Below the pieces are notes generated by a model. It saw only the letters and a program-made list of their open reading frames with translations. It made no database searches and was not told the origin of the DNA. From Candidatus Woesearchaeota archaeon (lineage in GTDB: Archaea > Nanobdellota > Nanobdellia > UBA10117 > ARS21), in contig JAYPKL010000001.1 in the NCBI GenBank assembly GCA_038128845.1, positions 113,605 through 177,604 on the forward strand: 64,000 bases of DNA, given 5' to 3'. A program made the position numbers and the translations under genes. Positions 13,903-42,252 of this stretch are shown here, one piece after another; positions within the stretch are counted from its first letter, which is position 1, and every line of letters begins with the position of its first letter.

Positions 13903-14640
13903 ATGTGTTATATGAAAAAATTCACATTATTATTTTTATTGCCCTTTTTACTAGTTTCAGTATTTGCAACAAATCACACAATTAACGAAACAATTAACGA
14001 AACAATTAACGAAACAATTAACGAAACAATTAACGAAACAACAGAAGATGACCCAGGAATTACTCCAGATTCATTTTTATGGGGAATCGAACTTGCACTT
14101 GAAAGAATACAACTTGCGTTTACATTTAATGAAGAAAGAAAGGCAGAATTAGCTTTAGAACATGCAACAGAAAGATTATTAGAAGTTCAACAAATGATTA
14201 ATGAAAATAATTTTGATGATGCAGAAAAAGCCCAAATAAGATATAATGATAAAGTATCATCATTAAATTTAGAATTTGAAGGTGCAAGTTCTGAATTTTT
14301 AGATTCAATTTATGAAGAATTTGAATTCAAATCCACCAATATACAAGATAAAATTAGAATTAAAATTGATTCAGAAGATCTTGATGAAGACAACAGAGTA
14401 AGAGCTAAAACAATTATAGAAACTATTGAAGGAGATAAATTAATCAAGATTAAAATTAAAGAAATAGCTGACGAAATTAACATACAAATTAAAGAAAAAT
14501 CATTAAGCGAAGATGATGATCTTCTAGATGATGACGATGACGACAAAAGAAAAGGAAAATCAGAAAAAGACGATGACGATGACAGAAAAGGAAAATCAGA
14601 AAAAGATGACGATGATGATGACGAAGCTTCTGATGACTAA
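13903..14640 (+). CDS. secreted acidic low-complexity protein with (ETIN)x5 repeat and poly-Asp C-terminal repeats
   Basis: Signal peptide MKKFTLLFLLPFLLVSVFA. INETINETINET... . C-terminal DDDDDKRKGKSEKDDDDD x2. Confidence 0.5.
   Translation: MCYMKKFTLLFLLPFLLVSVFATNHTINETINETINETINETINETTEDDPGITPDSFLWGIELALERIQLAFTFNEERKAELALEHATERLLEVQQMINENNFDDAEKAQIRYNDKVSSLNLEFEGASSEFLDSIYEEFEFKSTNIQDKIRIKIDSEDLDEDNRVRAKTIIETIEGDKLIKIKIKEIADEINIQIKEKSLSEDDDLLDDDDDDKRKGKSEKDDDDDRKGKSEKDDDDDDEASDD
13978..14037 (+). repeat. perfect tandem repeat, 12 nt x5 (ACAATTAACGAA), in frame within the CDS
   Basis: Directly visible in sequence. Encodes TINE x5. Confidence 0.9.
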
Positions 14641-15644: not shown

Positions 15645-15770
15645 ATGTCTAGACAACGCATATCGATAACTATCGATAAGAAGCTTTTGAATTGGGTTGA
15701 CAAGCAAGTCAAAGAAAAAAGATTTGCTAGCAGATCTCATGCATTGGAGTATTTATTAGCAAATGACTAA
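15645..15770 (+). CDS. ribbon-helix-helix (CopG/Arc-like) small DNA-binding protein, 41 aa
   Basis: MSRQRISITIDKKLLNWVDKQVKEKRFASRSHALEYLLAND: beta-strand ISITID + helix + SRSHALEYLL helix is the RHH signature. Its stop overlaps the giant-gene ATG (ATGACTAA). Not in the ORF track (<60 aa). Confidence 0.55.
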   Translation: MSRQRISITIDKKLLNWVDKQVKEKRFASRSHALEYLLAND

Positions 15771-18700
15771 GCCAAATTTTTTCCTAGGTAATTCTATTAT
15801 TGTTTTAGCTAGTTTGGTTGTTTTTATTTCTGCATTACTTTTACCATATAATCCTAATTTTGAAGGCTTCACACTAAGTGATCCTCAAGTATTAATTGAG
15901 AAATTTCCATCAAGCGTTTCACAAAGTGAAGTGCATGAGGCAGATAATAAAGTCGGTCTAACCGATTTTATTTCTGCTTTAAATTCAGGTTCTATTATTA
16001 CAGGTATGGCAGGAGGTTTACCAGGTCAATGTGCTTTAGTTAGCGAAGATCCTCAAGAAGTTGAGCAATTTTGTACTGGTTTTGTAGTACCTTTTTCAGT
16101 ATATAATGACGGTACATTCTGTTATCAAGATGCAAGGGATCCTGAAAATGCAGCTGCAAATGAATTTTATTGTAATAATGGAGAACCAAGTGCAATCGTC
16201 GGAGATTATATTGGACCGCCCTACGAACCACCACCTCCTTCTAATAATGCACCAACTTGGACACAAACAATAACTCATCCAACAGTTAATGAAGATTCAG
16301 GATCAACAATTGTTGACTCTGATTTAACTTCTAGCGGAAATGGTCAGTGTACGGATCCGGACGTCGGACAAACATTAATTTTTTCAGTTACATCAGAAAA
16401 TACTGCACAAGTTGATTGCGCAGTATCAGGTAATGCGTTAACAGTTACTCCCGCATCAAATTGGTTTGGTACAGCATCATGTACAATAACTTGTGATGAT
16501 GGAAATGGCGGAACTGCTGATGATACTCTGAGCATTACCGTAAACTCTGTGAATGATGCACCTGTTTTAACCGGAATTCCTGATCAAACACTAAGTCATA
16601 CTGCTTCATTAAATAATCTAATTGATCTTTATTCAAATCATAGCGATGTAGATGGTTCGGATGCTGCAACTACATTCACAATTAGTTCCGAAACAGATAC
16701 TTCGGTTGTAGATTGTTCTATTGATAGTGATAGATATGTTGATTGTACTTATGGAGATATGATCGGATCTTCAGATTATTCAGATATAACGATTACTGCC
16801 ACTGATGCAGGAAGCTTGACTGATACAGATACATTCAGAGTTACATTAACAAATATAGAACCAACAACAACAACTCCAACAATTTCACCAAGTTCTCCTT
16901 CTTCTGACGATGATTTAACAGGTTCAAGTTCATTAAGTGATTCGGACGGAGATTCTGTGAATTCAATTTTTGATTGGAGATTTTCCGGAACTTCATTTGC
17001 ATCATTAAATTTACCATTTGATACAAATCCTTCCAGTTCTACACTTAATGATTATACTAGTTACAATAATGATTTCACAAAAAATGGTGCCACATGGCAA
17101 AATAGCGCAACATGTGGACTAACTGGTTCAGGCGGATGTATGGAATTTGACGGTACAAACGACAGACTAACTAGAGCAGATGATTCAGATTTTGATAGCT
17201 TAACTGCATTATCTGTATGTGCATGGGTTTACCCTCACAGCTGGGGCGGAGCAACTGCTGCAGATTATATTTTTGATAAGAGACATGGTTCAAGTCCTTG
17301 GAATTCCGTGGCACTTTTTTTTCACGGAACAGGAGATAAATTAAGATTGGATTTGGGAGCAATAGACGGTACAAATTATGTTTTAGATTATGATTATCCT
17401 TCGGGAGATTTTCCAACAGGAAGTTGGCAATTTGTGTGTGGTACTTGGGATAGCACAAGTACAAATATGACAATATATTATAACGGTGCTAAAGCGAATT
17501 CAACAGGTACTACCTACGGCGGTACATTATTGGATGCAAACGATAAAGCAGTCATAGGAGTATTAGGAGATGAATTTCAGCACTGGTTTGACGGATATAT
17601 GGATAATATTCAATTTTATAACAAAGCCTTATCTTCACAACAAATTTCATCAATGTACGGTTCAGGAACTCCAAATTATGCAGTTTTAGTTTCAGAAGAA
17701 ACAAATGAGGCGGACTCAATAACTGTTACAATTACACCAAGTGATGCAATTGAAGACGGAACTTCTTCAACATCTTCTGCTTCAGTGGTTGCATCAAACT
17801 CTGCTCCAGTTGCTGCCGGTGCTTCACTTGCCGTTGATGAAGACACAACTCTTTCCGATACATTGACTGCAACAGATGCGGAGGGAGATCCATTAACTTT
17901 TTCCATAGTTTCACAAGCATCAAACGGAGTCGCTACAATTACAAACTCTGCAACTGGAGCTTTCAACTATGTTCCGGGCGCAAATTATACTGGAACAGAT
18001 TCATTTACTTTCAAAGCAAATGATGGAACAGCTGATTCGAATATTGAAACAATAAATATTTTAGTAAACCCTGTGAATGATGAACCAGTTTTAACTTCAA
18101 AATTATTATCAATTACTGGAAGTTCTCCATATTACACAACTGAATCTTTTACAGCATCTGCAACAGCATCTGATGTTGATGGAGACACATTAACATTCAT
18201 GTACGATTATAGATTTGATGGAAATTCAGACAGAGTTCTTCATTTATCTTTTGATACAAATACTTCCGAAAATTCAACCGATTATACTTCTTATTCAAAT
18301 GACGCAATAATAAATACGTCCGGAGCATATGATTCAAATGTTCATCCTGTTTGGACTTCTTCCGGAATCAAAGGAGGAGCATATGATTTTACAAATGTAG
18401 ACGATCATGATGCAGCTCATTCAAGTACAAATACTTTGAGAATTCCTTGGGATGAAAGTACATATGACTTAACTCAAGATCTATCTATTTGTTGGTGGAT
18501 GTATCCAACAAATATTGATCCTACCGGATCTACACAAGATAGACAAAACCCAATTTCAAAACATTATAGAGCAGAATTTCAATTCACGCTAGAGACCGAT
18601 GCAAGATTGAATTATTATCATGGTAATTCAAATCCAAATGGTACCACTTCAATTTATAGTTCTCACAGATTACTAAATGTTGGAGCAGTCACAGAAAATG

Positions 18701-21426
18701 ATTGGAATTTTGTTTGTATGGTCAGAGATGATTCCAACAAATGGGTATCCGGATTTTTAGACGGATCATTAAATAGAAATGAAACATATGATTTAATTGA
18801 TACTAATGACCCTTCCTTAGGTTATAGAGAACCAAATTCAGGAGCGGGAAATACATATTATGAAGATATATTAATTGGAGATGGTTATTCAAATCCGTTT
18901 ATCGGAAAAATTGATGAAGTAATGATTTGGAACAAAAAAATATCTGCAGAATATATTTTGTCAATGTATAATTCCGGAACTCCAGATTATTCAGTTTTAG
19001 TTTCACAAGAAACAAGAAAAGGAAATTATAATGTTAGCGTTACGCCTAGCGACGGAACAATTGACGGATCTTCAGGAATTACAAATACAATTGAAATTGT
19101 TAATTTGGCACCAACTTCCAGCACACCTGTTCTTCTTGCTTCAGATGATCCAGATAATAAAACAACAGCAGATTTAAGCGTAACAAACAATTTAGTAGAA
19201 CAAGATCCAGAAGATACTGAAACAAGAAGTTTCACAGAATGGTTTGTTGATTCCATTTCAACTTTAGAATTCTTTTACACTTTTTTCTTTAACTCAACTA
19301 CTGCCGAAGATTTGTCCAGTAATTCTGCAAATGGTACTTTATCCGATATAAATATGTATTACGGAACAGGCATACTTGATGGTGCAATTAATTTTGAACA
19401 AAATTCACAATATTATGTAGATTTAACTGCAAATAATTTTGATTTAACTAATGGAAAAACCCTTACTTTTTGGTATAAGTTAGCAGATAGTACAACAGTG
19501 AGTACGGGCTGTTATGCACCAAGTAGTTCTCAAGAAAGTTGTTATGGTATTTTTTCCAGCGGATCGAGTGGATCTTGGGACAATTATTTGAATTTACGTG
19601 TAGTTGGAACAAATCAAGCAGATATTCAATATGAATTACACGATGGTTCAAGCTTTGGAACACCAGGTTTTGACACAGACAGCACTTCATGGCACATGAT
19701 TGCACTTTCAATTGAATCAGGAAGTTTAAATTTATACCATGACGGACTTGTAATTGGCTCAGCACCTTTCGAAGAAGGTAAAAGAATAGACTTAAGCTAT
19801 TTAGGTATGGGATATGGAGGAGCAGATGATCCTCCTGCAAATGGTCAATTCTACGGACAATTAGACGAAGTTTCATTATTCACAAGAGCTCTACAGGGAG
19901 AACAAATTTTGGCAATTTATAATTCAGGTACTCCGTCTTATGACGAAATTGTTGCAGAAGAAACATTAAAAGGAGAAGATTGGAGCGTAGAAATAACGCC
20001 TATTGATAGAGAAGATTCAGGATCAACTGTGACCTCCAATACCGTTACTATTGAAAACACTGCACCAACAACTCCTTCAGGTTCTACATTATCGCCTTCT
20101 ACATTAAAAGTTGGAAATACATTAACAGCAACAGGAGCAGGATCAACTGACGCAGACGGAGATAGCTTAACATATTATTATGAATTTAGAAGTAATTCGG
20201 CTTCAGGAACAATACTACAAGCTTATTCAACAACCAATACTTACACAGTAGCTCAAAGTGATTCAGGAACTACAATTTATGTGAATATTAAAGCAAATGA
20301 CGCCACTGATGACTCATCTGCTGAAACTGTTTCAAAGGCAGTTTCAAATACTGCACCAACAATCGCCGGAACAGATATTACAATAAACGGTCAAGAAGAT
20401 ACAGATTTAATTTTTGGAACTGTTAATTTCACAACAAGTGCATCTTACAGTGATGCAGACGGAGATGCATTTGCAGGAATAAGAATTACGAGTGCGCCAA
20501 CAAATGGAGATTTATTTAATGGGGCAACTCAATTAACCGGTACAGGTTTACAATGTAATACGATTGTTTTGGGAGGATGTTCGGCTTATAATTTATTTGT
20601 ATCTTCATCAGATATTGCTTCAGGGAATTTTAAATTTGTACCTGACCCAAATGTTAACGGTAATACTGTTGCTGCATTCGGTTTCAATGTATATGATGGA
20701 ACAGAATATTCTTCCGGAGTTGGAACTTCAATTGTGATTAATTTAGGATCAGTTAATGATGCTCCAGTTGCTGTAGATGATGAATACTCTCTAGACTCAG
20801 GTAATACTTTAACAGTTTCAGCATCAGGCGTACTTACAAATGACTCTGATGTTGACGGAAATTCATTAACAACTGTTTTAGGAGTACCTCCTTCAGGAGC
20901 TTCAAGTTTTACACTTAACTCCGATGGAAGTTTCACATATGTTTCAGATCCAACATACTCTGGAGCCACAGATAGTTTCACGTATAGAGCAAATGACGGT
21001 TCTCTTAATTCGAATGTGGCAAATGTTACGATAAATCTTGCTAAAACAATTTCAATTGCACTTTCAAATTCACTTTCTACTGCTTTGACATTTAGTGCTT
21101 CACAAGCAAATGCCCAATTCAGCGGATCGGGTAATGACGATTATCATGTTAACTTAACTGCAAATGGAACAGCAGCAAATTTATCAATTAAAGCATCAGG
21201 TCCTTTATCTGACGGCGGATCAAACTCAATTGCATTATCAAATTTCAAATATAATTATACTGGATCATCAACTCCAGTAGCATTATCAACTTCAGAAACA
21301 AATACAACTAAATCATTTGCAGGTGTCTTAAAACAAACATTCTTTGAATTTTTTATAGACGTCCCAGCTAGCCAATCTGCAGGAACTTATACAAATACCA
21401 TTACATTTAGAGGTGAAACCTTGTAA
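15763..21426 (+). CDS. giant cell-surface protein (1887 aa): N-terminal signal anchor, three LamG/concanavalin-A-like modules, cadherin-like/VCBS-type repeats
   Basis: N-terminal TM (IIVLASLVVFISALLL). Three ~450-aa paralogous modules each ending in the Laminin_G_3 hallmark (MDNIQFYNKALSSQQISSMYGSGTPNY; IDEVMIWNKKISAEYILSMYNSGTPDY; LDEVSLFTRALQGEQILAIYNSGTPSY). Repeated VNDAPV/VNDEPV and DAPVAVDD...TNDSDVDGNSL motifs (cadherin-like/VCBS adhesin repeats). Thr/Ser/Asp-rich. Confidence 0.8.
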   Translation: MTKPNFFLGNSIIVLASLVVFISALLLPYNPNFEGFTLSDPQVLIEKFPSSVSQSEVHEADNKVGLTDFISALNSGSIITGMAGGLPGQCALVSEDPQEVEQFCTGFVVPFSVYNDGTFCYQDARDPENAAANEFYCNNGEPSAIVGDYIGPPYEPPPPSNNAPTWTQTITHPTVNEDSGSTIVDSDLTSSGNGQCTDPDVGQTLIFSVTSENTAQVDCAVSGNALTVTPASNWFGTASCTITCDDGNGGTADDTLSITVNSVNDAPVLTGIPDQTLSHTASLNNLIDLYSNHSDVDGSDAATTFTISSETDTSVVDCSIDSDRYVDCTYGDMIGSSDYSDITITATDAGSLTDTDTFRVTLTNIEPTTTTPTISPSSPSSDDDLTGSSSLSDSDGDSVNSIFDWRFSGTSFASLNLPFDTNPSSSTLNDYTSYNNDFTKNGATWQNSATCGLTGSGGCMEFDGTNDRLTRADDSDFDSLTALSVCAWVYPHSWGGATAADYIFDKRHGSSPWNSVALFFHGTGDKLRLDLGAIDGTNYVLDYDYPSGDFPTGSWQFVCGTWDSTSTNMTIYYNGAKANSTGTTYGGTLLDANDKAVIGVLGDEFQHWFDGYMDNIQFYNKALSSQQISSMYGSGTPNYAVLVSEETNEADSITVTITPSDAIEDGTSSTSSASVVASNSAPVAAGASLAVDEDTTLSDTLTATDAEGDPLTFSIVSQASNGVATITNSATGAFNYVPGANYTGTDSFTFKANDGTADSNIETINILVNPVNDEPVLTSKLLSITGSSPYYTTESFTASATASDVDGDTLTFMYDYRFDGNSDRVLHLSFDTNTSENSTDYTSYSNDAIINTSGAYDSNVHPVWTSSGIKGGAYDFTNVDDHDAAHSSTNTLRIPWDESTYDLTQDLSICWWMYPTNIDPTGSTQDRQNPISKHYRAEFQFTLETDARLNYYHGNSNPNGTTSIYSSHRLLNVGAVTENDWNFVCMVRDDSNKWVSGFLDGSLNRNETYDLIDTNDPSLGYREPNSGAGNTYYEDILIGDGYSNPFIGKIDEVMIWNKKISAEYILSMYNSGTPDYSVLVSQETRKGNYNVSVTPSDGTIDGSSGITNTIEIVNLAPTSSTPVLLASDDPDNKTTADLSVTNNLVEQDPEDTETRSFTEWFVDSISTLEFFYTFFFNSTTAEDLSSNSANGTLSDINMYYGTGILDGAINFEQNSQYYVDLTANNFDLTNGKTLTFWYKLADSTTVSTGCYAPSSSQESCYGIFSSGSSGSWDNYLNLRVVGTNQADIQYELHDGSSFGTPGFDTDSTSWHMIALSIESGSLNLYHDGLVIGSAPFEEGKRIDLSYLGMGYGGADDPPANGQFYGQLDEVSLFTRALQGEQILAIYNSGTPSYDEIVAEETLKGEDWSVEITPIDREDSGSTVTSNTVTIENTAPTTPSGSTLSPSTLKVGNTLTATGAGSTDADGDSLTYYYEFRSNSASGTILQAYSTTNTYTVAQSDSGTTIYVNIKANDATDDSSAETVSKAVSNTAPTIAGTDITINGQEDTDLIFGTVNFTTSASYSDADGDAFAGIRITSAPTNGDLFNGATQLTGTGLQCNTIVLGGCSAYNLFVSSSDIASGNFKFVPDPNVNGNTVAAFGFNVYDGTEYSSGVGTSIVINLGSVNDAPVAVDDEYSLDSGNTLTVSASGVLTNDSDVDGNSLTTVLGVPPSGASSFTLNSDGSFTYVSDPTYSGATDSFTYRANDGSLNSNVANVTINLAKTISIALSNSLSTALTFSASQANAQFSGSGNDDYHVNLTANGTAANLSIKASGPLSDGGSNSIALSNFKYNYTGSSTPVALSTSETNTTKSFAGVLKQTFFEFFIDVPASQSAGTYTNTITFRGETL

Positions 21427-21575
21427 TGAAATCCGTAATTACAATTTCTATAGACAAAGACTTACTAAAACGAATAGATGAAGGAATTAAAGATTATAAA
21501 TTCGCTAATAGATCGCATGGTTTTGAATACTTAATTTCTAGAGAAATATTGAAAAAGAAGGAGAGTAAAAATTAA
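21426..21575 (+). CDS. ribbon-helix-helix small protein, 49 aa, paralog of the upstream RHH
   Basis: MKSVITISIDKDLLKRIDEGIKDYKFANRSHGFEYLISREILKKKESKN. Same ISI.IDK.LL..(V/I)D......FA.RSH..EYL pattern as the 15645 ORF. Its ATG shares the A of the giant-gene TAA. The next gene starts 2 nt after its stop. Confidence 0.5.
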   Translation: MKSVITISIDKDLLKRIDEGIKDYKFANRSHGFEYLISREILKKKESKN

Positions 21576-21576
21576 T

Positions 21577-22212
21577 ATGAAAAAATTAAGTTTACTATTA
21601 ATTTTATTCTTAATTCCCTCAGGCTTTGCAGTATCTGGAGCAGGATTAAAATATAATTTTGAATATGTTGAACTTTTAGAAAAAGCAGAGCATTGTTTGA
21701 ATTATGGAGTTTACAATCCTTACGATTCAGATTCTTTAATTTCATTATCTGCAGAAGGAGATTTTCAAGACTATGTAATTGAAAGTGAACCAACAAATGT
21801 TCCTGCAAATACAAATGCAAATAATGAATTAAGAAAAGATATTTGTTTTAAAATTCCAAAAATAGTTGAGTCTTGTGAAGAAGGTAAAGTTCTTGAAGGT
21901 CAAATTATCGCTTCAACTTCACCAAGTACTGAAGGAATCGGAACTGCACTTGCTGTTTCTGCACCGCTAGAGATGAAAGTTAATTGTAATGATTCGTCTC
22001 AAGTAAATTTAATTTATTTTGTAATTCCTTTTATAATTATTTCAACACTTGTTGGATTATTCCAATTTAGAAAAAATTCACGAACTAAAAAATATAATTC
22101 TCTTTATTCCGAACTTATGTTTCTTCATAAAAAAATAAGTTCAGGAAACTTTGATCAATCTCATGTTGATAGATTTAACAAATTACGTTCTATTTTGATT
22201 AATTTCAAATAA
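21577..22212 (+). CDS. secreted protein with C-terminal TM anchor and short cytoplasmic tail
   Basis: Signal peptide MKKLSLLLILFLIPSGFAVSGA. C-terminal helix LIYFVIPFIIISTLVGLFQF followed by basic residues. Confidence 0.45.
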   Translation: MKKLSLLLILFLIPSGFAVSGAGLKYNFEYVELLEKAEHCLNYGVYNPYDSDSLISLSAEGDFQDYVIESEPTNVPANTNANNELRKDICFKIPKIVESCEEGKVLEGQIIASTSPSTEGIGTALAVSAPLEMKVNCNDSSQVNLIYFVIPFIIISTLVGLFQFRKNSRTKKYNSLYSELMFLHKKISSGNFDQSHVDRFNKLRSILINFK

Positions 22213-22288
22213 TTTTTTTATGTATTTGTTAAGTATATTAACAATAAATTATATATACTAATTATTTGTTAATATTATTAACAATTGG

Positions 22289-22774
22289 GTGGATAGTTTG
22301 AAGAATAACTTGTCAGATAGACATATTTACGTATTTAGCACTAGAAACCTCTCTGCAACTGAACGTGTAAAATTTCATTATGCTCTCAGGGGAAGAAATA
22401 ATCCCGGTATTCTTGAACAAACAAACTCAAAATATTTATCCAAAACAATTATTGAAACATCTGAAAAAAATACAAAAACTATAGCTGAATTTCTAGAAAA
22501 TTGGAATTGTTCTTATAATCTTCTAAAATTATCCAAAGGTAAATCACATCTTCTTGTGAAGTATTCTACCACCCAATTGAATTCTACACAATTAGTACAA
22601 TTTACTTACGGACTTTATGGAAGAAGCAAACCAGGTTTGATAAAAAAAGATTCTAAAGAGAAACTTTCCAAAGGTTATTTTTTACTAAAAAAAGATAACA
22701 GCAAAGAAATTTTAGAATTTTTGAACCACTGGAATTGTGAATTATTAATTGAGGAGGTGGATTTAAATGAATAA
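22289..22774 (+). CDS. cytoplasmic protein built from two tandem copies of an uncharacterised ~70-aa domain
   Basis: Copy 1 HIYVFSTRNLSATERVKFHYALRGRNNPGIL...EFLENWNCSYNLLKL. Copy 2 HLLVKYSTTQLNSTQLVQFTYGLYGRSKPGLI...EFLNHWNCELLIEEV. No TM. Confidence 0.45.
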   Translation: MDSLKNNLSDRHIYVFSTRNLSATERVKFHYALRGRNNPGILEQTNSKYLSKTIIETSEKNTKTIAEFLENWNCSYNLLKLSKGKSHLLVKYSTTQLNSTQLVQFTYGLYGRSKPGLIKKDSKEKLSKGYFLLKKDNSKEILEFLNHWNCELLIEEVDLNE

Positions 22775-23537
22775 TAACCAACTCAATTACAAAAGAAACG
22801 AATTAATTGGTAAACATAATCGAAGACTTAAGAGAATAACTTTACTAAACCAACAACTTAAAGCAGGTTTAATTACTTACGAAGAATATTCAAGAAGATA
22901 TGATGAGTTAACAAACAATAAACCAATTTCACATCATGAAAATCTTCTGAATAGAAGACTGGATCAAATTAGTAATCTAGGTTATAGAGAAAAGAGTAAG
23001 ATAAAGTTACTTCCATTAATCTTTGGACTAATTATGTTACCGGCATTAATTGGAATTGGAATAACCGGATTTGCAACTACTGGCGATCAAGATGTTACTG
23101 CAACATTAACAATTAGCAATAACATTGCAGGAAGTTTAAGTTATTCGGGAGTAACATTTACAGATACTAATTTACTTGGCGATAATAATGCTACTTTGAA
23201 TAATCTTGGAAGTTCAGCACCAGGATATACAATTGAGCTAGATGACAGTACGACTGTGAATAATCTCAATGTATGTATTAATGGTACAGATTTAACTTCT
23301 GGATCAAATACAATTGATGTAAGCAGGATAGAAGTATCTTCAAGCTTAACTGGAAGTTCAACAATACCGGCAAAGAGTTCAAGTATTGATTTATCCACCT
23401 CAAGACAAGAAATAGAAGGAGACTTGGATGCGGGAGAAACTCTTTACCAAAGATATTGGTTAGATTTAAGCGGAGGTACACAAACTGGAACATATACTGG
23501 TACATCCGAAATATTAATTACAGAAAATGCATGTTAA
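22767..23537 (+). CDS. bitopic membrane protein: cytoplasmic coiled N-domain, one TM, Thr/Ser-rich extracellular domain
   Basis: TM LLPLIFGLIMLPALIGIGITGF then ATTGDQDVTATLTISNN... . Overlaps the upstream gene by 8 nt. Confidence 0.45.
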   Translation: MNNNQLNYKRNELIGKHNRRLKRITLLNQQLKAGLITYEEYSRRYDELTNNKPISHHENLLNRRLDQISNLGYREKSKIKLLPLIFGLIMLPALIGIGITGFATTGDQDVTATLTISNNIAGSLSYSGVTFTDTNLLGDNNATLNNLGSSAPGYTIELDDSTTVNNLNVCINGTDLTSGSNTIDVSRIEVSSSLTGSSTIPAKSSSIDLSTSRQEIEGDLDAGETLYQRYWLDLSGGTQTGTYTGTSEILITENAC

Positions 23538-23598
23538 AGAAAAATTTGATAAAATATTCAATTTTTTATCAATAATCTTTTATATAAAAAATAAATAT

Positions 23599-23808
23599 AT
23601 GATTATGAATAACAAAAATATGTACGCGTATATATTGTTAGGAGCTGTTTTATTAGCAGGTGTTGCCGGATATATGATGGCAGACCAAGCAGATTCTGAC
23701 ACAGTTATTTTGCCAGACACCAATGAAGTGTTAATTACTGTTACAATAGCAGGTAATTCACTTGATGCAGATGTCACTACGGAGGATAATTATGGCTCGA
23801 GCACGTAG
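23599..23808 (+). CDS. small signal-anchored secreted peptide
   Basis: MIMNNKNMYAYILLGAVLLAGVAGYMMADQADSDTVILPDT... . Likely start at internal Met of the tracked 93-aa ORF. Overlaps the next gene. Confidence 0.3.
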   Translation: MIMNNKNMYAYILLGAVLLAGVAGYMMADQADSDTVILPDTNEVLITVTIAGNSLDADVTTEDNYGSST

Positions 23809-24346
23809 AAATGATGATATGATGAAACTTGCAGCAATTTCTGCAGCAGTTTCATTAGTAGTTGTTTTAGTTTTTTTTGGAGGTACATTGACAGGAAATT
23901 CTTCTACTGATGTAACTCTAACTACAACTATTGCTGCCACTACAACATGTACATTTAATGAAACAGCCGTAACTTTCGGAGCTTTAAATCTTGAAACAAA
24001 TTCTCAATCTCCTGATGCAGGTGATATTATTGAAGTTGTCAACGACGGTTCTACAATCGTAAATATGACTGCTGCTTTAAATCAAACTGCAACAAGTTTA
24101 TTGGGTACTACTACTGGAACTTCTGCATTGGATATAGCCGTTACAGCTGAATCAGGTACTGCAAGCAGTTTAACTGCCTTAGGAACATCAGCAACAGATG
24201 CTGTTACTTTGTTATTACCTGACGATGCAACAGATGCAGTAACACTTACGACCACTATTGACGTAGGTGGAGGAGCATCTAATGTAGGTATAGCAAATGA
24301 AGCACTAATTTCATTTGTTTGTACCGCAGATGTTGACGGAAGTTAA
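23792..24346 (+). CDS. secreted Thr-rich protein with N-terminal signal anchor
   Basis: GGAGGA SD-like then MARARRNDDMMKLAAISAAVSLVVVLVFFGGTLTGNSSTDVTLTTTIAATTT... . Low-complexity T/A/S-rich ectodomain. Confidence 0.45.
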   Translation: MARARRNDDMMKLAAISAAVSLVVVLVFFGGTLTGNSSTDVTLTTTIAATTTCTFNETAVTFGALNLETNSQSPDAGDIIEVVNDGSTIVNMTAALNQTATSLLGTTTGTSALDIAVTAESGTASSLTALGTSATDAVTLLLPDDATDAVTLTTTIDVGGGASNVGIANEALISFVCTADVDGS

Positions 24347-24874
24347 TTGGTAAAATTAAAATTTAGGAGTATCTTTTGGATACTTCTTATTTTTTTTTCA
24401 ATAAATCATGTTTTTTCTTATTCTTTACTCGGACCTCATGAAACATTCACAGTAATTCCTGAAAAAAAATATTCTGGAGAAATATGTATTGGCGCATTCG
24501 GCGATCAAGATTTATTTAATAGAACTTTTCTATATTCATTTGAAAGTAATGATACTGTATTTGTTAATTTCACAATGGACAAAGAAGTAACATCAGATAA
24601 ACGAGATAAATTTTGTAATTCTTATTATTTTTTTGGCGGAGAGTATACTTCTTCAGTAAGTAAAAGTCCTGCTGCTGCAATATTGGTTTCCGAAAAAGTA
24701 GATAGCGGTATTGTTATGGGATACAAAAGAATCATATATGCGGATACTTCTTCTGTGACTTATCGACACGCACTTATCAATCTTTCAAAAAATTTTATTT
24801 TTGTTTTTGTATCTATATTTTCAGTTTTTGGATTAATATTATATATTTTAAAAAAGAATAAATTTAATGAATAA
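24347..24874 (+). CDS. secreted protein with C-terminal TM anchor
   Basis: N-terminal hydrophobic FWILLIFFSINHVFS. C-terminal helix FIFVFVSIFSVFGLILYIL + KKNK. Confidence 0.4.
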   Translation: MVKLKFRSIFWILLIFFSINHVFSYSLLGPHETFTVIPEKKYSGEICIGAFGDQDLFNRTFLYSFESNDTVFVNFTMDKEVTSDKRDKFCNSYYFFGGEYTSSVSKSPAAAILVSEKVDSGIVMGYKRIIYADTSSVTYRHALINLSKNFIFVFVSIFSVFGLILYILKKNKFNE

Positions 24875-26204
24875 AAATATATTATTAGTATTTTCTTTAA
24901 CAATTGTTTTTTCAATTTTTTTCACATCATCAATTATAACGGGCTTATCAACTTATCAAATCAATTTATCTACAAATATAAATCCAATTTATTGGGAAGA
25001 AGAGATCCCCAATATTATAATTTTTCAAAATTCAAGTAGTTTTATTGTTGATTCAGATTTAAGTAATTCAGGTAACGGGTTTTGTAATTCATATAGCGAT
25101 CAAGACAATACAACATTTACAATATCGGATGAGTCTTCTTCAAAAGTTGATTGTAATATAGATGATGTTAAGTTATCGATTATTCCAAATAGCTCTTTTG
25201 CAGGTAGTACTGTTTGTGAAGTTACTTGTAATGAATTTAATTTTTCTGAATCAATTAATTTCACAATAAATGTTTTAGAAGATTTAGAACCAGAATCTGA
25301 AGTTGTTGTAGTAAGTTCTGGCGGAGGCGGAGGCGGAGGAATATCCCGAGCTCAATTAGCGAATATTCTTGGTCAAAATAATATTTTTAATATTGCCATA
25401 AATCCAGAGTCAATTAAACTTAAGTTACGTCCAGGGGAGACTATAAGTGAAATAATTAGTATTGAAAATAAATTAGATAAAATTTATGATATAAACATTC
25501 AAGAAAACACCTTAGTTTCTTATGTAAACATTAAAAATGAACATAGTTTAGAACCAAAATCTACAATAAAAATTCCAATTGAAATTGGAGTACCATTAAA
25601 TGAGTATAGATCAATTATTACAGGTACAATTGATTTTGATGAATATACGGATCTTGCAGTTGTTATAGAAGTTATAAATCCTTTATTAAATCCCGATTCA
25701 CAGCAAGAAGTTGAATTATTAGTTACTTTAGGAACAGACTATATATCTCCAACTCTAATATTCACAGGAGAAATTGATAAGAAAAATATACTTCCAGGTA
25801 CATTACTTAAGCCTAGGATAAAACTTACTGAGTTTTATCAATCAGGATATCCCGAAATAAGTCTCACTTATTATTTATTTGATATGAATAATAATGAATT
25901 GCTCTCATTTACTGACTATTATAAGACTTATGATGACAGAACTCTGAGCATTTTGTTACCTGAAGATATTCCTTTAGGTGAATATGCTCTCACTTTTGAA
26001 GCAAAATATGGTAATTTTGTTTCTAGGAATACTCAAACACTCCAAATAGTATCAAGTAAAGGTTTACTAACTGATGAATTAATAATCCTCACTTTGATGG
26101 TGGGTGTTATGGCTTATTCCATATATGCAGTATCAACTAGACGAAAACGGGGCGGAAATAAACGAAATAAACAAAAAACTAATGCTAAATTAATTTATCA
26201 TTAA
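24867..26204 (+). CDS. surface protein sharing an N-terminal domain with the giant protein; Gly7 linker; C-terminal TM + basic tail
   Basis: DSDLSNSGNGFCNSYSDQDNTTFTISDESSSKVDCNIDD...STVCEVTCNEF aligns with the giant protein segment DSDLTSSGNGQCTDPDVGQTLIFSVTSENTAQVDCAVSG...ASCTITCDDGNG. SSGGGGGGG linker. TM LIILTLMVGVMAYSIYAV then RRKRGGNKRNKQ. Confidence 0.55.
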   Translation: MNKNILLVFSLTIVFSIFFTSSIITGLSTYQINLSTNINPIYWEEEIPNIIIFQNSSSFIVDSDLSNSGNGFCNSYSDQDNTTFTISDESSSKVDCNIDDVKLSIIPNSSFAGSTVCEVTCNEFNFSESINFTINVLEDLEPESEVVVVSSGGGGGGGISRAQLANILGQNNIFNIAINPESIKLKLRPGETISEIISIENKLDKIYDINIQENTLVSYVNIKNEHSLEPKSTIKIPIEIGVPLNEYRSIITGTIDFDEYTDLAVVIEVINPLLNPDSQQEVELLVTLGTDYISPTLIFTGEIDKKNILPGTLLKPRIKLTEFYQSGYPEISLTYYLFDMNNNELLSFTDYYKTYDDRTLSILLPEDIPLGEYALTFEAKYGNFVSRNTQTLQIVSSKGLLTDELIILTLMVGVMAYSIYAVSTRRKRGGNKRNKQKTNAKLIYH

Positions 26205-26222
26205 ATAAAATTTTTTTTTGTT

Positions 26223-26474
26223 AACTCTCACTTTAGATTTATTATAAAATAATCTAGGCTAATAGTATAATAAGAGTAATTATCTCATTTTTATTCAATA
26301 GATATACTAACTCTTGACAATTTTAATTAATTATATTACTACTAAATATAACTCTCACTTTATTATTACAATCTATACTTGCATAGTTTGATCCAAATAA
26401 GAAGAGATATTTGAATATATTTTACGGTTTTTTTCAAAGATATTTTAACTTTATATTATCTAACTCTCACTTTA
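26223..26474. repeat. three dispersed copies of AACTCTCACTTTA in a 520-bp noncoding region
   Basis: Copies at 26223-26235, 26350-26362 and 26462-26474, each followed by A/T-rich sequence. Confidence 0.7.
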
Positions 26475-26627
26475 AACTTGTTATTTTGTGACTAATTTAG
26501 AGGCACTTTATCTATTATTTACTATTAATTTATATTAAATTTGGATCTATTTTTCTTACTCATTGTTCACTTTTTACGTATTTTTTAAAATTTGGAAATT
26601 TTTAGTAAATATTTTAATAAACTATTG

Positions 26628-26721
26628 TTAAACATATGATAAACACGTGATAAACACTTGATAAACATGTGTTAAACACATTAAACACGTGATAAACACA
26701 TTAAACACGTGATAAACACAT
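26628..26721 (+). promoter_or_regulatory. iteron-like tandem array, ~9 units of TAAACAC(G/A)TG with embedded CACGTG palindromes, ending 4 nt before the ATG at 26726
   Basis: TTAAACATATGA TAAACACGTGA TAAACACTTGA TAAACATGTGT TAAACACAT TAAACACGTGA TAAACACAT TAAACACGTGA TAAACACAT. A 20-mer TAAACACATTAAACACGTGA is repeated. Confidence 0.6.
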
Positions 26722-26725
26722 AAAA

Positions 26726-27241
26726 ATGGTGATAAAAACCGTATTACGGAAAGTATTTAGGAAAAAAACTAAAAAGAACTCTAAAAAAGAAGTAAAAGAT
26801 CACAAAGTTCTAAGTTCTTGGGAAGATATGTATGAAGAATTACAAGAACATCCATTAACTCAAGCCAAAATAATTAATGAAACTTTATTTAAGAACACAA
26901 ATAACGCAATTGAAAAAATAAACATTAGATTAGATGGCATTGATGATAGATTAACAAGACTTGAAAAAAGAAAAGTTAAATCAGGTTCTGAAGAAGTTAT
27001 TGTAGTTAAAGAAGAATCAGATGTTTTAATCAAGCCAATTTTAGATAAAGGAAGATTATCTGATCAAGAAGAATTAATTCTAGAAATGATTAAAGAACAA
27101 GGAGAGGTTGATGCTAAATCAGTTTCCAATAAATTTGATATATCCAGAGGTAATGCAAGCCTTAAATTAAACAAGCTTCATGATTTTGGTTTATTAAGTA
27201 AAAGAATGGATGATAAGACTGTATTTTATTTATTAAAATAA
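26726..27241 (+). CDS. putative DNA-binding protein with C-terminal winged helix-turn-helix
   Basis: Basic N-terminus (KVFRKKTKKNSKK), central coiled coil, C-terminal ELILEMIKEQGEVDAKSVSNKFDISRGNASLKLNKLHDFGLLSKR (wHTH-like). Confidence 0.4.
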   Translation: MVIKTVLRKVFRKKTKKNSKKEVKDHKVLSSWEDMYEELQEHPLTQAKIINETLFKNTNNAIEKINIRLDGIDDRLTRLEKRKVKSGSEEVIVVKEESDVLIKPILDKGRLSDQEELILEMIKEQGEVDAKSVSNKFDISRGNASLKLNKLHDFGLLSKRMDDKTVFYLLK

Positions 27242-29814: not shown

Positions 29815-30990
29815 TTAAATATTATTGTTTTTCATTTTATTTAAATAAAAATAGTAAATTATTACAAAAATAGAAAATATGCCAAAAATAAAAATAAGAT
29901 TTTTATTATTCTCTTTTAGACTTATATCTTTTTCAGAAATACAAACGCCATCATTACAACTATTTAATCGACATTCGTAATCATAATTACATTCAGATCC
30001 TCCAACCTTCTTCGGATAATATTTAAATCCATCACAATAGAATGAAAGATTGTTTTCAAATTTTTCTTCACCTTTTTCACAAAAGGATGAATCAATTTTT
30101 TGTGGAGCTTCACAATCATTATCGTTCATATAGTTACAATTATAACTACAATATCCGTCATTATCTTTACAAATATCATTGTTTGTAAATTGGCATGTTT
30201 TTGGAATCAAGACGCCATCTCCGAAACAAATATCATCAGTAGATATATTAAGATCATTACAATCAATATCCGATATACATTCATTTAGTATATTACAATC
30301 TGAATCCTTGAATTCAAATAATTTTGAATTTTTTGAGCAACCTTCTGGACAACATTCATCCGAACCATCGCATTCAGTAATTTCATTATACTCACATCGC
30401 CCCGAATTTAGATTATCTCCATTACAAGTATCAATCGTACAACTATTTCCATCATCACAATCATTATCAGAATTACAGAAGTTTTTGCAATCATTATCCG
30501 CTCTATCAGAACATTTATTTGGACAATATCCATCATTATCTATACAAGACGTTATTTCTTCATATTTGCAAATATTTTTATCAAGATTACAGGTATCAAG
30601 AGTACTAATATCGCCATCATCACAATCAGAATTTGTTGTACATTGAAATTTATTTAAAATAATTATGTTAAGACTAACATATCTTTCATCAGGAGTATAA
30701 ACTATATCTTCTATTGTTAAATTAACTTCTTGCAACTTCAAAGTTTCATTTATTCTTAATATTTTATTATCTGAATAATCAACTGATACTAAAATTGCTT
30801 CTTCGAATATATTTTTTACCGATATATTTCTTCCATCTAATAAGACACTATCATTTTCATTTAATAGTTCAACTTCTTCAGTTAAAGAAAAAACAATAGG
30901 AAAAATAAATAAAAGAAATAATATTTTTTTCATATTATTATTTTTAATATTCATTAATAATAGCTCCGGCCGGATTTGAACCGGCGTCAT
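29815..30990 (-). CDS. cysteine-rich repeat surface protein (signal peptide, ~50 Cys in repeated CxxDxDCDDGNxCTxDxC modules, C-terminal TM)
   Basis: Signal MKKILFLLFIFPIVFS. Repeated TNSDCDDGDISTLDTCN / SDNDCDDGNSCTIDTCN / SDIDCNDLNISTDDICF modules. C-terminal helix IFIFGIFSIFVIIYYFYL. Confidence 0.5.
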   Translation of the reverse strand: MTPVQIRPELLLMNIKNNNMKKILFLLFIFPIVFSLTEEVELLNENDSVLLDGRNISVKNIFEEAILVSVDYSDNKILRINETLKLQEVNLTIEDIVYTPDERYVSLNIIILNKFQCTTNSDCDDGDISTLDTCNLDKNICKYEEITSCIDNDGYCPNKCSDRADNDCKNFCNSDNDCDDGNSCTIDTCNGDNLNSGRCEYNEITECDGSDECCPEGCSKNSKLFEFKDSDCNILNECISDIDCNDLNISTDDICFGDGVLIPKTCQFTNNDICKDNDGYCSYNCNYMNDNDCEAPQKIDSSFCEKGEEKFENNLSFYCDGFKYYPKKVGGSECNYDYECRLNSCNDGVCISEKDISLKENNKNLIFIFGIFSIFVIIYYFYLNKMKNNNI

Positions 30991-41981: not shown

Positions 41982-42252
41982 GGGCTAGACAGGCGGGTTA
42001 GGCGCCGTTGTAACTCCATATACCGGAGTGTCGAAGTTCATTGGGAGGCATTGACGGTATGCTATATCCCCAAACAATAATGTCGAAGCGTTGCCTTCCT
42101 TGGCGGTTAATTTTGAGAACCTGGTCAGGCGGGGAACCGAGCAGCCATAATCATGTTTATTCGTGCTTTGAAGTAGTGGCGTGGAGTTATTATTTGGTAA
42201 GATATTTTATTCAAGAAATGTCCACTTTTGAACGTGCCCACTTATTCTAAGT
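41982..42252 (+). ncRNA. ffs: signal recognition particle RNA (7S RNA)
   Basis: GC-rich island. 5' GGGCTAGACAGGCGGG. Helix-8 motif CTGGTCAGGCGGGGAACCGAGCAGCC (consensus GUCAGG-CC-GAAGG-AGCAGCC). 3' end complementary to the 5' end. Confidence 0.7.

Follow-up and report, generated by a model that had tools for sequence, protein, structure and literature searches.

A chromosomal gene cluster at positions 15645-26204, possibly extending to 27241, of a 64,000-nt stretch of a marine Woesearchaeota genome (contig JAYPKL010000001.1; hereafter the window) is best read, in our estimate with a probability of roughly 0.45, as encoding a membrane-tethered adhesion platform, which would probably serve in host attachment. 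The cluster consists of a gene for a giant secreted adhesin and seven smaller open reading frames (ORFs), all on the + strand, which begin at 21577, 22289, 22767, 23599, 23792, 24347 and 24867 and are designated A to G in that order. The giant protein has one domain in common with G and another in common with C, and extracellular segments encoded at separate sites in the cluster co-vary among strains. The first-pass annotation of this DNA had described the seven ORFs as an operon. All seven exist and the clustering is real, but the locus is larger than described: two ribbon-helix-helix (RHH) genes and a downstream winged-helix gene had been overlooked. Nor are the gaps uniformly 0-8 nt, as had been claimed, since 76 nt separate A from B and 61-67 nt separate C from D. 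The proposal that this is a dedicated surface or attachment locus is supported by the conserved gene order, the overlaps and Shine-Dalgarno-like boxes, the two domains in common with the giant protein and the extracellular co-variation; that its products form an attachment apparatus is plausible.

Two domains of the giant adhesin recur in G and C

The giant protein (15763..21426, + strand; 1887 aa) has an N-terminal signal anchor, three LamG domains and cadherin-like/Big_9 repeats. One of its cadherin-like domains (16246..16557, + strand; aa 162-265) is paralogous to the N-terminal domain of G (24981-25283; aa 39-139). The two are 31% identical over 104 aa (E 4e-14), a longer match than the ~75 aa initially reported. 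The giant copy (aa 161-266) scores above the cutoffs of Cadherin_5 (40.1 bits against 26.5; E 3.3e-10) and Big_9 (37.8 bits against 23.6). The G copy is recognised solely through its alignment to the giant protein, not by Pfam. An apparent similarity between the domains of G themselves disappeared when the comparison was made on alignment columns and was rejected as an artefact of unaligned partial sequences.

The second pairing involves the C-terminal beta-sandwich domain of the giant protein (21046..21423, + strand; aa ~1762-1887), an unclassified domain that occurs as distinct allelic types and is a paralogue of the ectodomain of C, so that a small and a large protein share it. A BLASTP comparison of the C ectodomain with giant aa 1762-1879 gave an E of 0.004 over 136 aa; hhalign returned E values of 2.6e-5 and 6.2e-5 (probability 65-75%, 115-117 columns), and in an all-against-all hhalign comparison of the operon families this was the sole supported pair. 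Thus, the giant protein has one domain in common with G and another in common with C.

The length of the giant protein differs by strain, from 1887 aa in the window to 1789 and 1311 aa in two other haplotypes (L009:1198-6567 and L004:1804-5739). As judged from the sequences, these differences point to modular gain and loss of repeats. Within the gene, each of three strain pairs compared has 86-96% identity over a stretch at about 20283-20732, whereas neighbouring segments have 49-79% in the pairs that include haplotype L005.

Topology of the A to G proteins

Topology and signal peptides were predicted from a Kyte-Doolittle hydrophobicity scan. The signals or anchors previously ascribed to the small proteins are supported by hydrophobic segments in six of the seven ORFs; ORF 22289 (B) has none and is assigned to the cytoplasm. 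ORFs 21577, 24347 and 24867 (A, F and G) have an additional C-terminal transmembrane (TM) segment. The ectodomains, said to be rich in Ser and Thr, are indeed so in C (0.21), E (0.27) and the giant protein (0.25), while the others have fractions of just 0.14-0.18.

A (21577..22212, + strand) has a signal peptide, an ectodomain of ~120 aa with four Cys residues, a TM segment and a conserved 50-aa cytoplasmic tail. C (22767..23537, + strand) begins with a conserved, helical cytoplasmic domain of 80 aa that carries a SHOCT-like motif, continues with a TM segment at aa 81-99 and ends in the ~155-aa ectodomain homologous to the giant C-terminal domain, with two conserved Cys residues, C170 and C256. 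The beta-strand directly following the anchor (23067..23141, + strand; aa 101-125) is an allelic patch. In G (24867..26204, + strand), a signal peptide and the variable cadherin-like domain are joined through a Gly linker to a pair of conserved beta domains, and a TM segment and basic tail come last; the two features previously pointed out, a Gly7 run and a TM segment followed by RRKRGG, are present. F (24347..24874, + strand) combines a signal peptide, a hypervariable ectodomain of ~115 aa, a conserved C-terminal TM segment and a KKFNE tail.

In D (23599..23808, + strand), the signal peptide is conserved, while the mature peptide, of just ~40 aa, is hypervariable. It starts at 23605 or 23599, the former being probable, with a TTTATATA box 19-26 nt upstream of 23605; a D start at either of these positions and the E start at 23792 are backed by orthologues and by a GGAGGA box. 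The conserved C-terminal '(D/N)GS' of D is a by-product of a 17-nt overlap (23792-23808) with the conserved E start (ATGGCTCGA…) and was rejected as a functional motif of D, as it arises from the coding start of E. E (23792..24346, + strand) has a conserved signal/anchor (…FFGGxLTGN) followed by a Thr-rich, hypervariable ectodomain of ~150 aa with one N-terminal and one C-terminal Cys.

B (22289..22774, + strand) consists of two copies of an uncharacterised domain of ~75 aa with the consensus YS..L....V.F.YALKGR...G, then FL..W.C, and is 81-99% conserved among strains. The domain is widespread: an exhaustive search gave 106 representatives, including 45 single-domain proteins, 22 tandem ones and 22 C-terminal fusions, in which the domain ends MNT-type nucleotidyltransferases or DUF6932 proteins. 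Among 56 representatives scanned, a fusion to a Polbeta/NTP_transf_2 nucleotidyltransferase was seen in 18 and DUF6932 in 12. The domain matched nothing in Pfam, NCBIfam or the PDB, and the exhaustive search revealed no tie to any surface system.

Gene order is conserved in marine relatives

The order exoIII-RHH-giant-RHH-A-B-C-D-E-F-G-171-aa protein-XerA-like recombinase is kept on about 20 marine-metagenome contigs representing at least five haplotypes, all of them from marine metagenomes (TARA, JGI, NCBI, Logan). A word-indexed homologue search found a narrow lineage only, with 12 matches each for G and C and 3 matches for E. No relatives of C were found among GTDB species representatives and none of G in a search of 2.9 M viral contigs.

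We considered whether the locus might be a mobile or virus-derived cassette, encoding receptor-binding or tail-fibre-like proteins of an integrated element. A tyrosine recombinase gene lies 1 kb downstream and a tRNA-Gln gene at 30961, GC content is slightly raised in the giant gene, the mosaic pattern described below indicates recombination, and the weak Foldseek matches of the C model are phage tail-fibre or C1q-like heads. However, these fold matches were obtained with a model of low confidence and their TM-scores are 0.1-0.3, and no relative was found in the viral contigs. The recombinase has the size (266 aa) and domains of chromosomal Xer-type enzymes and is 72-99% conserved along with the backbone. 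Moreover, all haplotypes have the same flanking genes (exoIII upstream; the 171-aa protein, recombinase and MCM downstream) and hence show no presence/absence polymorphism. A mobile origin is accordingly very unlikely.

Non-contiguous extracellular segments co-vary among strains

Between strains, variation is concentrated in a hypervariable island (23655..25365, + strand) that takes in mature D, E and F in their entirety and the N-terminal G domain. Here nucleotide identity is 31-76% in every strain pair. In the comparison of the window with haplotype L009, nucleotide identity falls from 91-99% in the flanks to 42-73% in the island. The same two strains are nearly identical in B (98-99%), the C cytoplasmic domain (96%) and the 171-aa protein (99%), and the giant body is 92% identical; the corresponding values for exposed parts are 49% for D, 38% for E, 36% for F and 49% for the G head.

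Haplotype L009 is a mosaic: a window-like backbone with two separate L005-like patches. The first patch (21033-22007) comprises the giant C-terminal domain, RHH2 and the A ectodomain, and is 93-99% identical to L005 and 50-81% to the window. The second (23058-23204) corresponds to the post-anchor strand of C (88% to L005, 65% to the window). The ~900 bp between them, encoding the A tail, B and the C cytoplasmic domain, are 98-99% window-like at the nucleotide level (22158-22907).

Mantel tests were performed on identity matrices of five independent haplotypes (window, L009, L005, L017 and L020). The last 50 aa of the giant protein co-vary with the C strand (r 0.94; exact p 0.017, the lowest possible p being 0.008), and the giant C-terminus co-varies with the A ectodomain (r 0.77), which lies in the same recombination block. 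In contrast, the giant C-terminus is not correlated in this way with B (r -0.33) or with the C cytoplasmic domain (r -0.11), whereas the latter two go together (r 0.90). The cytoplasmic segments between the co-varying patches have a different genealogy. Four of the haplotypes (window, L009, L005 and L020) represent every combination in a 2x2 design of backbone by allele type, in which the C strand parts company with the C core: between window and L020 identity is 92% in the strand and 51% in the core, and between window and L009 it is 45% and 89%, respectively. The loop ahead of the last strand of C likewise tracks the strand type.

Co-segregation of non-contiguous segments is as expected if extracellular pieces must fit each other, and it argues for a physical contact, requiring matched alleles, between the giant C-terminal domain and the C strand. 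It also bears on the notion that these are independent secreted or membrane proteins, co-located without a common assembly. ORFs A to G are without family assignment and interaction between their products is a prediction, which speaks for this notion; but the strict gene order and overlapping reading frames, the two paralogous domain pairs that tie the giant protein to C and G, and the co-variation of non-contiguous segments all oppose it, and we hold mere co-location to be quite improbable.

The post-anchor sequences also bear on another interpretation. A similar motif following the anchors of several of the small proteins had been noted as reminiscent of SipW-dependent TasA/camelysin-type fibre proteins, and this look, confined to the one strain (GFATTGDQDVTATLTIS; GGTLTGNSSTDVTLTTT), is what speaks for such an assignment. 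The motif is present in this strain but not conserved: it lies in the most variable part of C and E, and orthologues have unrelated sequence there (for example, 'GFGSVTLGTTLSVELEKS' in C and 'GGSLTGNAVYQVDVEVV' in E). No ORF matches TIGR04088, any other NCBIfam model, Pfam Peptidase_M73 or the TasA/CalY models at E<=1, nor was TasA matched in the PDB. None of the cluster ORFs, all of which were scanned, matches an S24 or S26 peptidase, the rest of the window having been scanned in part. With no TIGR04088 or Peptidase_M73 match, no S26 peptidase in the cluster and a strain-specific motif, the SipW/TasA reading is unsupported and extremely unlikely.

Family and fold searches, and the fimbrial alternative

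The only Pfam or NCBIfam matches to pass threshold are those to LamG, cadherin and Big_9, all in the giant protein. ORFs A to G gave nothing above threshold in either database even when every orthologue and sub-domain was scanned. Sequence-profile searches of the PDB, which includes TasA, AbpA, TafE, the thread subunit and chaperone-usher pilins, returned nothing significant for A, C, E (with two alignments), F, G or the B domain. The B domain and the six proteins that are secreted or lie in the membrane all represent unclassified families. The first beta domain of G has sub-threshold similarity to WxLIP_PGBD/DUF916, seen in 9 of the 11 members of the G family (15-17 bits against 27.3; best E 0.0085); DUF3324 is not matched in G, and the WxL domain (PF13731) is not matched in C, the giant C-terminus or their orthologues at E<=10.

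The main rival to a membrane-tethered platform is a fimbria assembled by donor-strand exchange without chaperone or usher, of the class to which Tafi, threads, archaeal bundling pili (ABP) and TasA belong. E would be the major pilin, D a strand-only cap or adaptor, the giant protein a tip adhesin attached through its pilin-like C-terminus, and C a terminator like TafF. We regard this as doubtful, while recognising that several features fit. E is small (~150 aa when mature), Thr-rich and hypervariable and is preceded by a strong Shine-Dalgarno box; its orthologues display a pilin-like pattern after the signal (an alternating strand, C-x-F, L-x-FG and v-V-x-N-x-G). Its top PDB match, although non-significant (E 0.39), is PapE. 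One of about nine E alleles has a sub-threshold SCPU match over its N-terminal half (17.7 bits against 22.4; E 0.005), and the other alleles have no SCPU or fimbrial match. Mature D is about one or two beta-strands in length, and the C strand tracks a domain of another protein rather than the C core, in donor-strand fashion. In Taf clusters, too, a tip adhesin with LamG is found together with small pilins, a subunit anchored by a TM segment and a regulator (PMC11821415).

Other features are at odds with a fimbria. Similarity to DUF1102, TafA/TafE, TasA, AbpA or threads is absent by hidden Markov model and PDB profile searches, including any TafA/TafE-type (DUF1102-like) pilin by Pfam, NCBIfam or PDB profile; AbpA came just 46th in the Foldseek ranking (E 0.2). 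No cluster ORF matches the S26 peptidase TafD or the DUF5305 protein TafG, and PapD chaperones and ushers are not matched either. The giant protein does match the NCBIfam TafC model NF052521 (E 8.5e-12), with 44.8 bits against a cutoff of 410 and a best stretch (aa 425-634) in the LamG region. The giant C-terminal domain retains its own counterpart of the C strand, so that no missing strand is evident in it. Every small protein retains a TM or anchor-like segment, and conserved cytoplasmic parts (B, the C N-terminal domain and the A tail) would not be expected for such pili. As for other export and assembly routes, type IV pilus ATPase, platform and peptidase families (the PilB/PilC/PibD-type machinery) are absent from the cluster ORFs, and the conserved small-residue sites come after the hydrophobic segments, unlike those of class III signal peptides. 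A twin-arginine signal is not indicated: E has 'RARR' in this strain and RK or KK in orthologues, with no RRxFLK-like motif.

Regulatory genes and probable transcription units

RHH1 (15645..15770, + strand) encodes a 41-aa ribbon-helix-helix protein and overlaps the start of the giant gene by 8 nt. It is a paralogue of RHH2, is conserved in haplotypes L004 and L009, and has a palindrome, TACATAT-N3-ATATGTA, upstream at about 15594. RHH2 (21426..21575, + strand; 49 aa) shares one base with the stop codon of the giant gene; it is 84% conserved and matches RHH_1 below threshold (E 0.003; 17.8 bits against a cutoff of 20.5). Downstream of G in every case is the gene for a 171-aa protein (26726..27241, + strand; 86-99% conserved) with a C-terminal winged-helix segment and weak MarR/TrmB matches. 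It is a possible further member of the system.

Two 19-bp palindromes, TTGTTAA-N5-TTAACAA, lie upstream of B (22226..22284) around a TATA-like TTATATATA; the seven haplotype contigs spanning this region each retain one copy or more. From its sequence, this region is likely to be an operator for an RHH or the winged-helix protein and the putative operator and promoter of B-C. Internal genes overlap or carry GGAGG-like boxes (C, E, A). An oligo-T run 4 nt past the G stop codon (26209..26217, + strand) likely marks the end of a transcription unit. The overlaps, boxes, palindromes and oligo-T run, with the palindromes and downstream arrays conserved across haplotypes, suggest three transcription units: RHH1-giant-RHH2-A, B-C and D-E-F-G. 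A scan for sigma-70 promoters, a bacterial type and not that of archaea, was uninformative, with 67 sites against 65 expected.

An array of seven to nine '(G/T)(A/T)TAAACA(C/T)' (TAAACAC-like) units occupies 26618-26722 and abuts the ATG of the winged-helix gene. The units are mostly 11 bp apart, about one helical turn, and the array is conserved in haplotypes L009, L005, L001, L016 and L003. An operator array and an iteron-like element are both conceivable readings of it. The 521-nt intergenic region between G and the winged-helix gene also contains, at 26223-26474, three direct copies of 'TAACTCTCACTTTA' with spacings of 127 and 112 nt. The first copy comes directly after the oligo-T run, and one or two copies are kept in other haplotypes.

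Genomic context

The window has a low GC content, about 29%, and slightly higher within the giant gene. It contains a 16S-tRNA(Ala)-23S operon and the RNase P RNA and encodes TopoVI A/B, IleRS, AlaRS, RFC, FtsZ and HerA; MCM is present on syntenic contigs. The organism is a DPANN archaeon, since TopoVI-B is 71-74% identical to proteins of marine Woesearchaeota/Nanoarchaeota metagenome-assembled genomes.

Two further proteins with signal peptides are encoded near the cluster. One, of 245 aa (13903-14640, + strand), is a secreted protein in which the signal peptide gives way to an (NETI)x5 repeat; it also has a DUF5667 domain (E 5.5e-20) and ends in an acidic poly-Asp/Lys tail, and its gene lies just upstream of a Sec61-beta-like ORF and exoIII. 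The other (29815-30990, - strand; 391 aa) is an orphan surface protein, rich in Cys, in which numerous CxxC/DxD-type repeats lie between a signal peptide and a C-terminal TM segment; it is conserved in haplotype L003 and without a Pfam hit. Elsewhere in the window, a 97-nt segment (42090-42186, + strand) matches the Rfam model 'Bacteria_small_SRP' with 43.2 bits (gathering score 40). An archaeal genome is expected to encode a signal recognition particle (SRP) RNA of ~300 nt; the match may correspond to the core that is conserved in a DPANN SRP RNA of divergent or reduced form.

Discussion

In the membrane-tethered platform that we favour, the giant LamG/cadherin protein would be exported by the Sec pathway and form the distal binding module. 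Its C-terminal beta-sandwich of ~125 aa would pair with the homologous ectodomain of C, itself fixed in the membrane by its TM helix and 80-aa cytoplasmic domain. We infer that the contact uses the membrane-proximal beta-strand of C, and possibly the A ectodomain, in beta-strand augmentation or complementation that would keep the adhesin on the cell. G would be a type-I membrane protein with a giant-paralogous cadherin-like head followed by two Ig-like domains; A and F, likewise predicted type-I membrane proteins, would make up a membrane-anchored scaffold together with it. D and E may be small, abundant, hypervariable exposed subunits, serving as adaptor or stalk or as a variable coat. Control of the three probable transcription units would fall to RHH1 and RHH2, perhaps along with the winged-helix protein. 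Recombination between strains would swap the exposed parts as matched sets and so change what the cell binds or its antigenic character, presumably in order to recognise hosts or evade viruses.

Several considerations weigh against this model. The homology between the C ectodomain and the giant C-terminal domain, as judged from sequence comparison, is of moderate strength. The co-variation rests on five haplotypes and essentially two or three allele classes, and shared selection on exposed epitopes, without contact, could also yield it. The A ectodomain adjoins the giant C-terminal domain and for this reason may co-vary by hitch-hiking. The AlphaFold2 model of C has a mean predicted local distance difference test (pLDDT) score of 58, with about 70 in the ectodomain core and 27-39 in the post-anchor strand, and that of E, built from four sequences, is unusable (pLDDT 34). 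Foldseek searches retrieved generic jelly-roll or helical matches only, none significant. Finally, the model leaves B, the C cytoplasmic domain and the A tail unaccounted for. The structure predictions are too weak to separate a filament from a membrane-tethered complex.

A more far-reaching proposal can also be made. The cluster might specify a previously undescribed DPANN attachment organelle, built of orphan beta-sandwich proteins by strand complementation, with allele-matched interfaces (giant C-terminus, A ectodomain and C strand) and a swappable cassette of D, E, F and the G head for host specificity, wired to the cytoplasm through the C N-terminus, the A tail and B, and unrelated to type IV pili, Tafi, threads, ABP or hami. 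We think this unlikely.

How DPANN archaea recognise and hold their hosts is little understood, and marine Woesearchaeota are uncultured. The cluster offers a concrete, conserved candidate, with an adhesin of ~1900 aa, a likely membrane anchor and a hypervariable cassette. Population data alone lead to a specific prediction, namely type-matched binding between the giant C-terminal domain and the post-anchor strand of C. If such binding is confirmed, the principle of WxL platforms, a docking domain common to a small and a large protein plus a TM-anchored tandem-Ig partner, would have arisen independently in archaea, and genes of the cluster could be used as markers to follow in metagenomes how host range varies from strain to strain.

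Comparison with known systems

The best analogy, one of architecture without homology, is with the Gram-positive WxL/WxLIP (Csc) clusters of Lactobacillales and Bacillales, in which a small and a large protein have one domain in common and a TM protein with tandem Ig-like domains is predicted to insert a strand into that domain (PMC10599100). There as here, the small protein is essentially one beta-sandwich domain, the large adhesin has the same domain C-terminally, behind its host-binding domains, and in a third protein (here G) a TM helix at the C-terminus comes after Ig-like domains in tandem; the weak WxLIP_PGBD matches of most G-family members, though below threshold, lie in this third component. 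There are also differences. A, B, D, E, F and the two RHH genes are additional to the WxL set, G has an added cadherin-like head, and no LPXTG protein is present. DPANN archaea are not known to make peptidoglycan, and the anchor must therefore be the membrane, through the TM helix and cytoplasmic domain of C. Neither a WxL domain nor a dual W-x-L motif is found; with the defining domain absent, the relation is one of analogy, not membership.

Tafi and taf-like clusters of Haloarcula, Natrinema, Thermococcus and Archaeoglobus (PMC11821415, PMC12337348) resemble the present locus in being archaeal and in having a LamG adhesin, small secreted beta-sandwich subunits, a TM-anchored subunit, a small transcription regulator and a proposed assembly by strand donation without an ATPase. 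Unlike them, the cluster lacks a TafA/TafE/DUF1102 pilin, the TafD S26 peptidase and the DUF5305 protein TafG, and its similarity to TafC (44.8 against 410 bits) is limited to the LamG region. Its signals are of the Sec rather than the Tat (twin-arginine) type, the RR of E not being conserved; the pilin-like domain of its adhesin is C-terminal instead of N-terminal, and the adhesin is about five times larger.

With the TasA/TapA/SipW system of Bacillus and with AbpA, the cluster has in common Sec-secreted beta-sandwich proteins with an N-terminal strand directly after the signal peptide and, on the proposed reading, a function in surface adhesion or biofilm formation without an ATPase. It differs in having no sequence or significant structural similarity to them, no SipW and an N-terminal motif that is not conserved. 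Sulfolobus threads (Saci_0406/0405) likewise consist of orphan beta-sandwich proteins that depend on Sec and are encoded in a small operon; strand complementation by a minor paralogue has been proposed to cap or nucleate the filament, and the assembly machinery is unknown (PMC9715654). Threads show no homology to the proteins described here and are without giant adhesin, membrane-anchored partners or cytoplasmic components, and their isopeptide Asp/YYY motif does not occur in the cluster.

Lastly, fast-diversifying hypothetical surface proteins of Nanoarchaeota and other DPANN archaea have been regarded as host-recognition or host-evasion factors (PMC6142677). They share with the proteins of the cluster a single N-terminal TM segment and an unusually high amino-acid diversity. 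In the cluster, by contrast, variation is organised, in the form of a multi-gene cassette and matched non-contiguous patches within a conserved operon, and this orderly exchange of surface parts as matched sets appears to be new.

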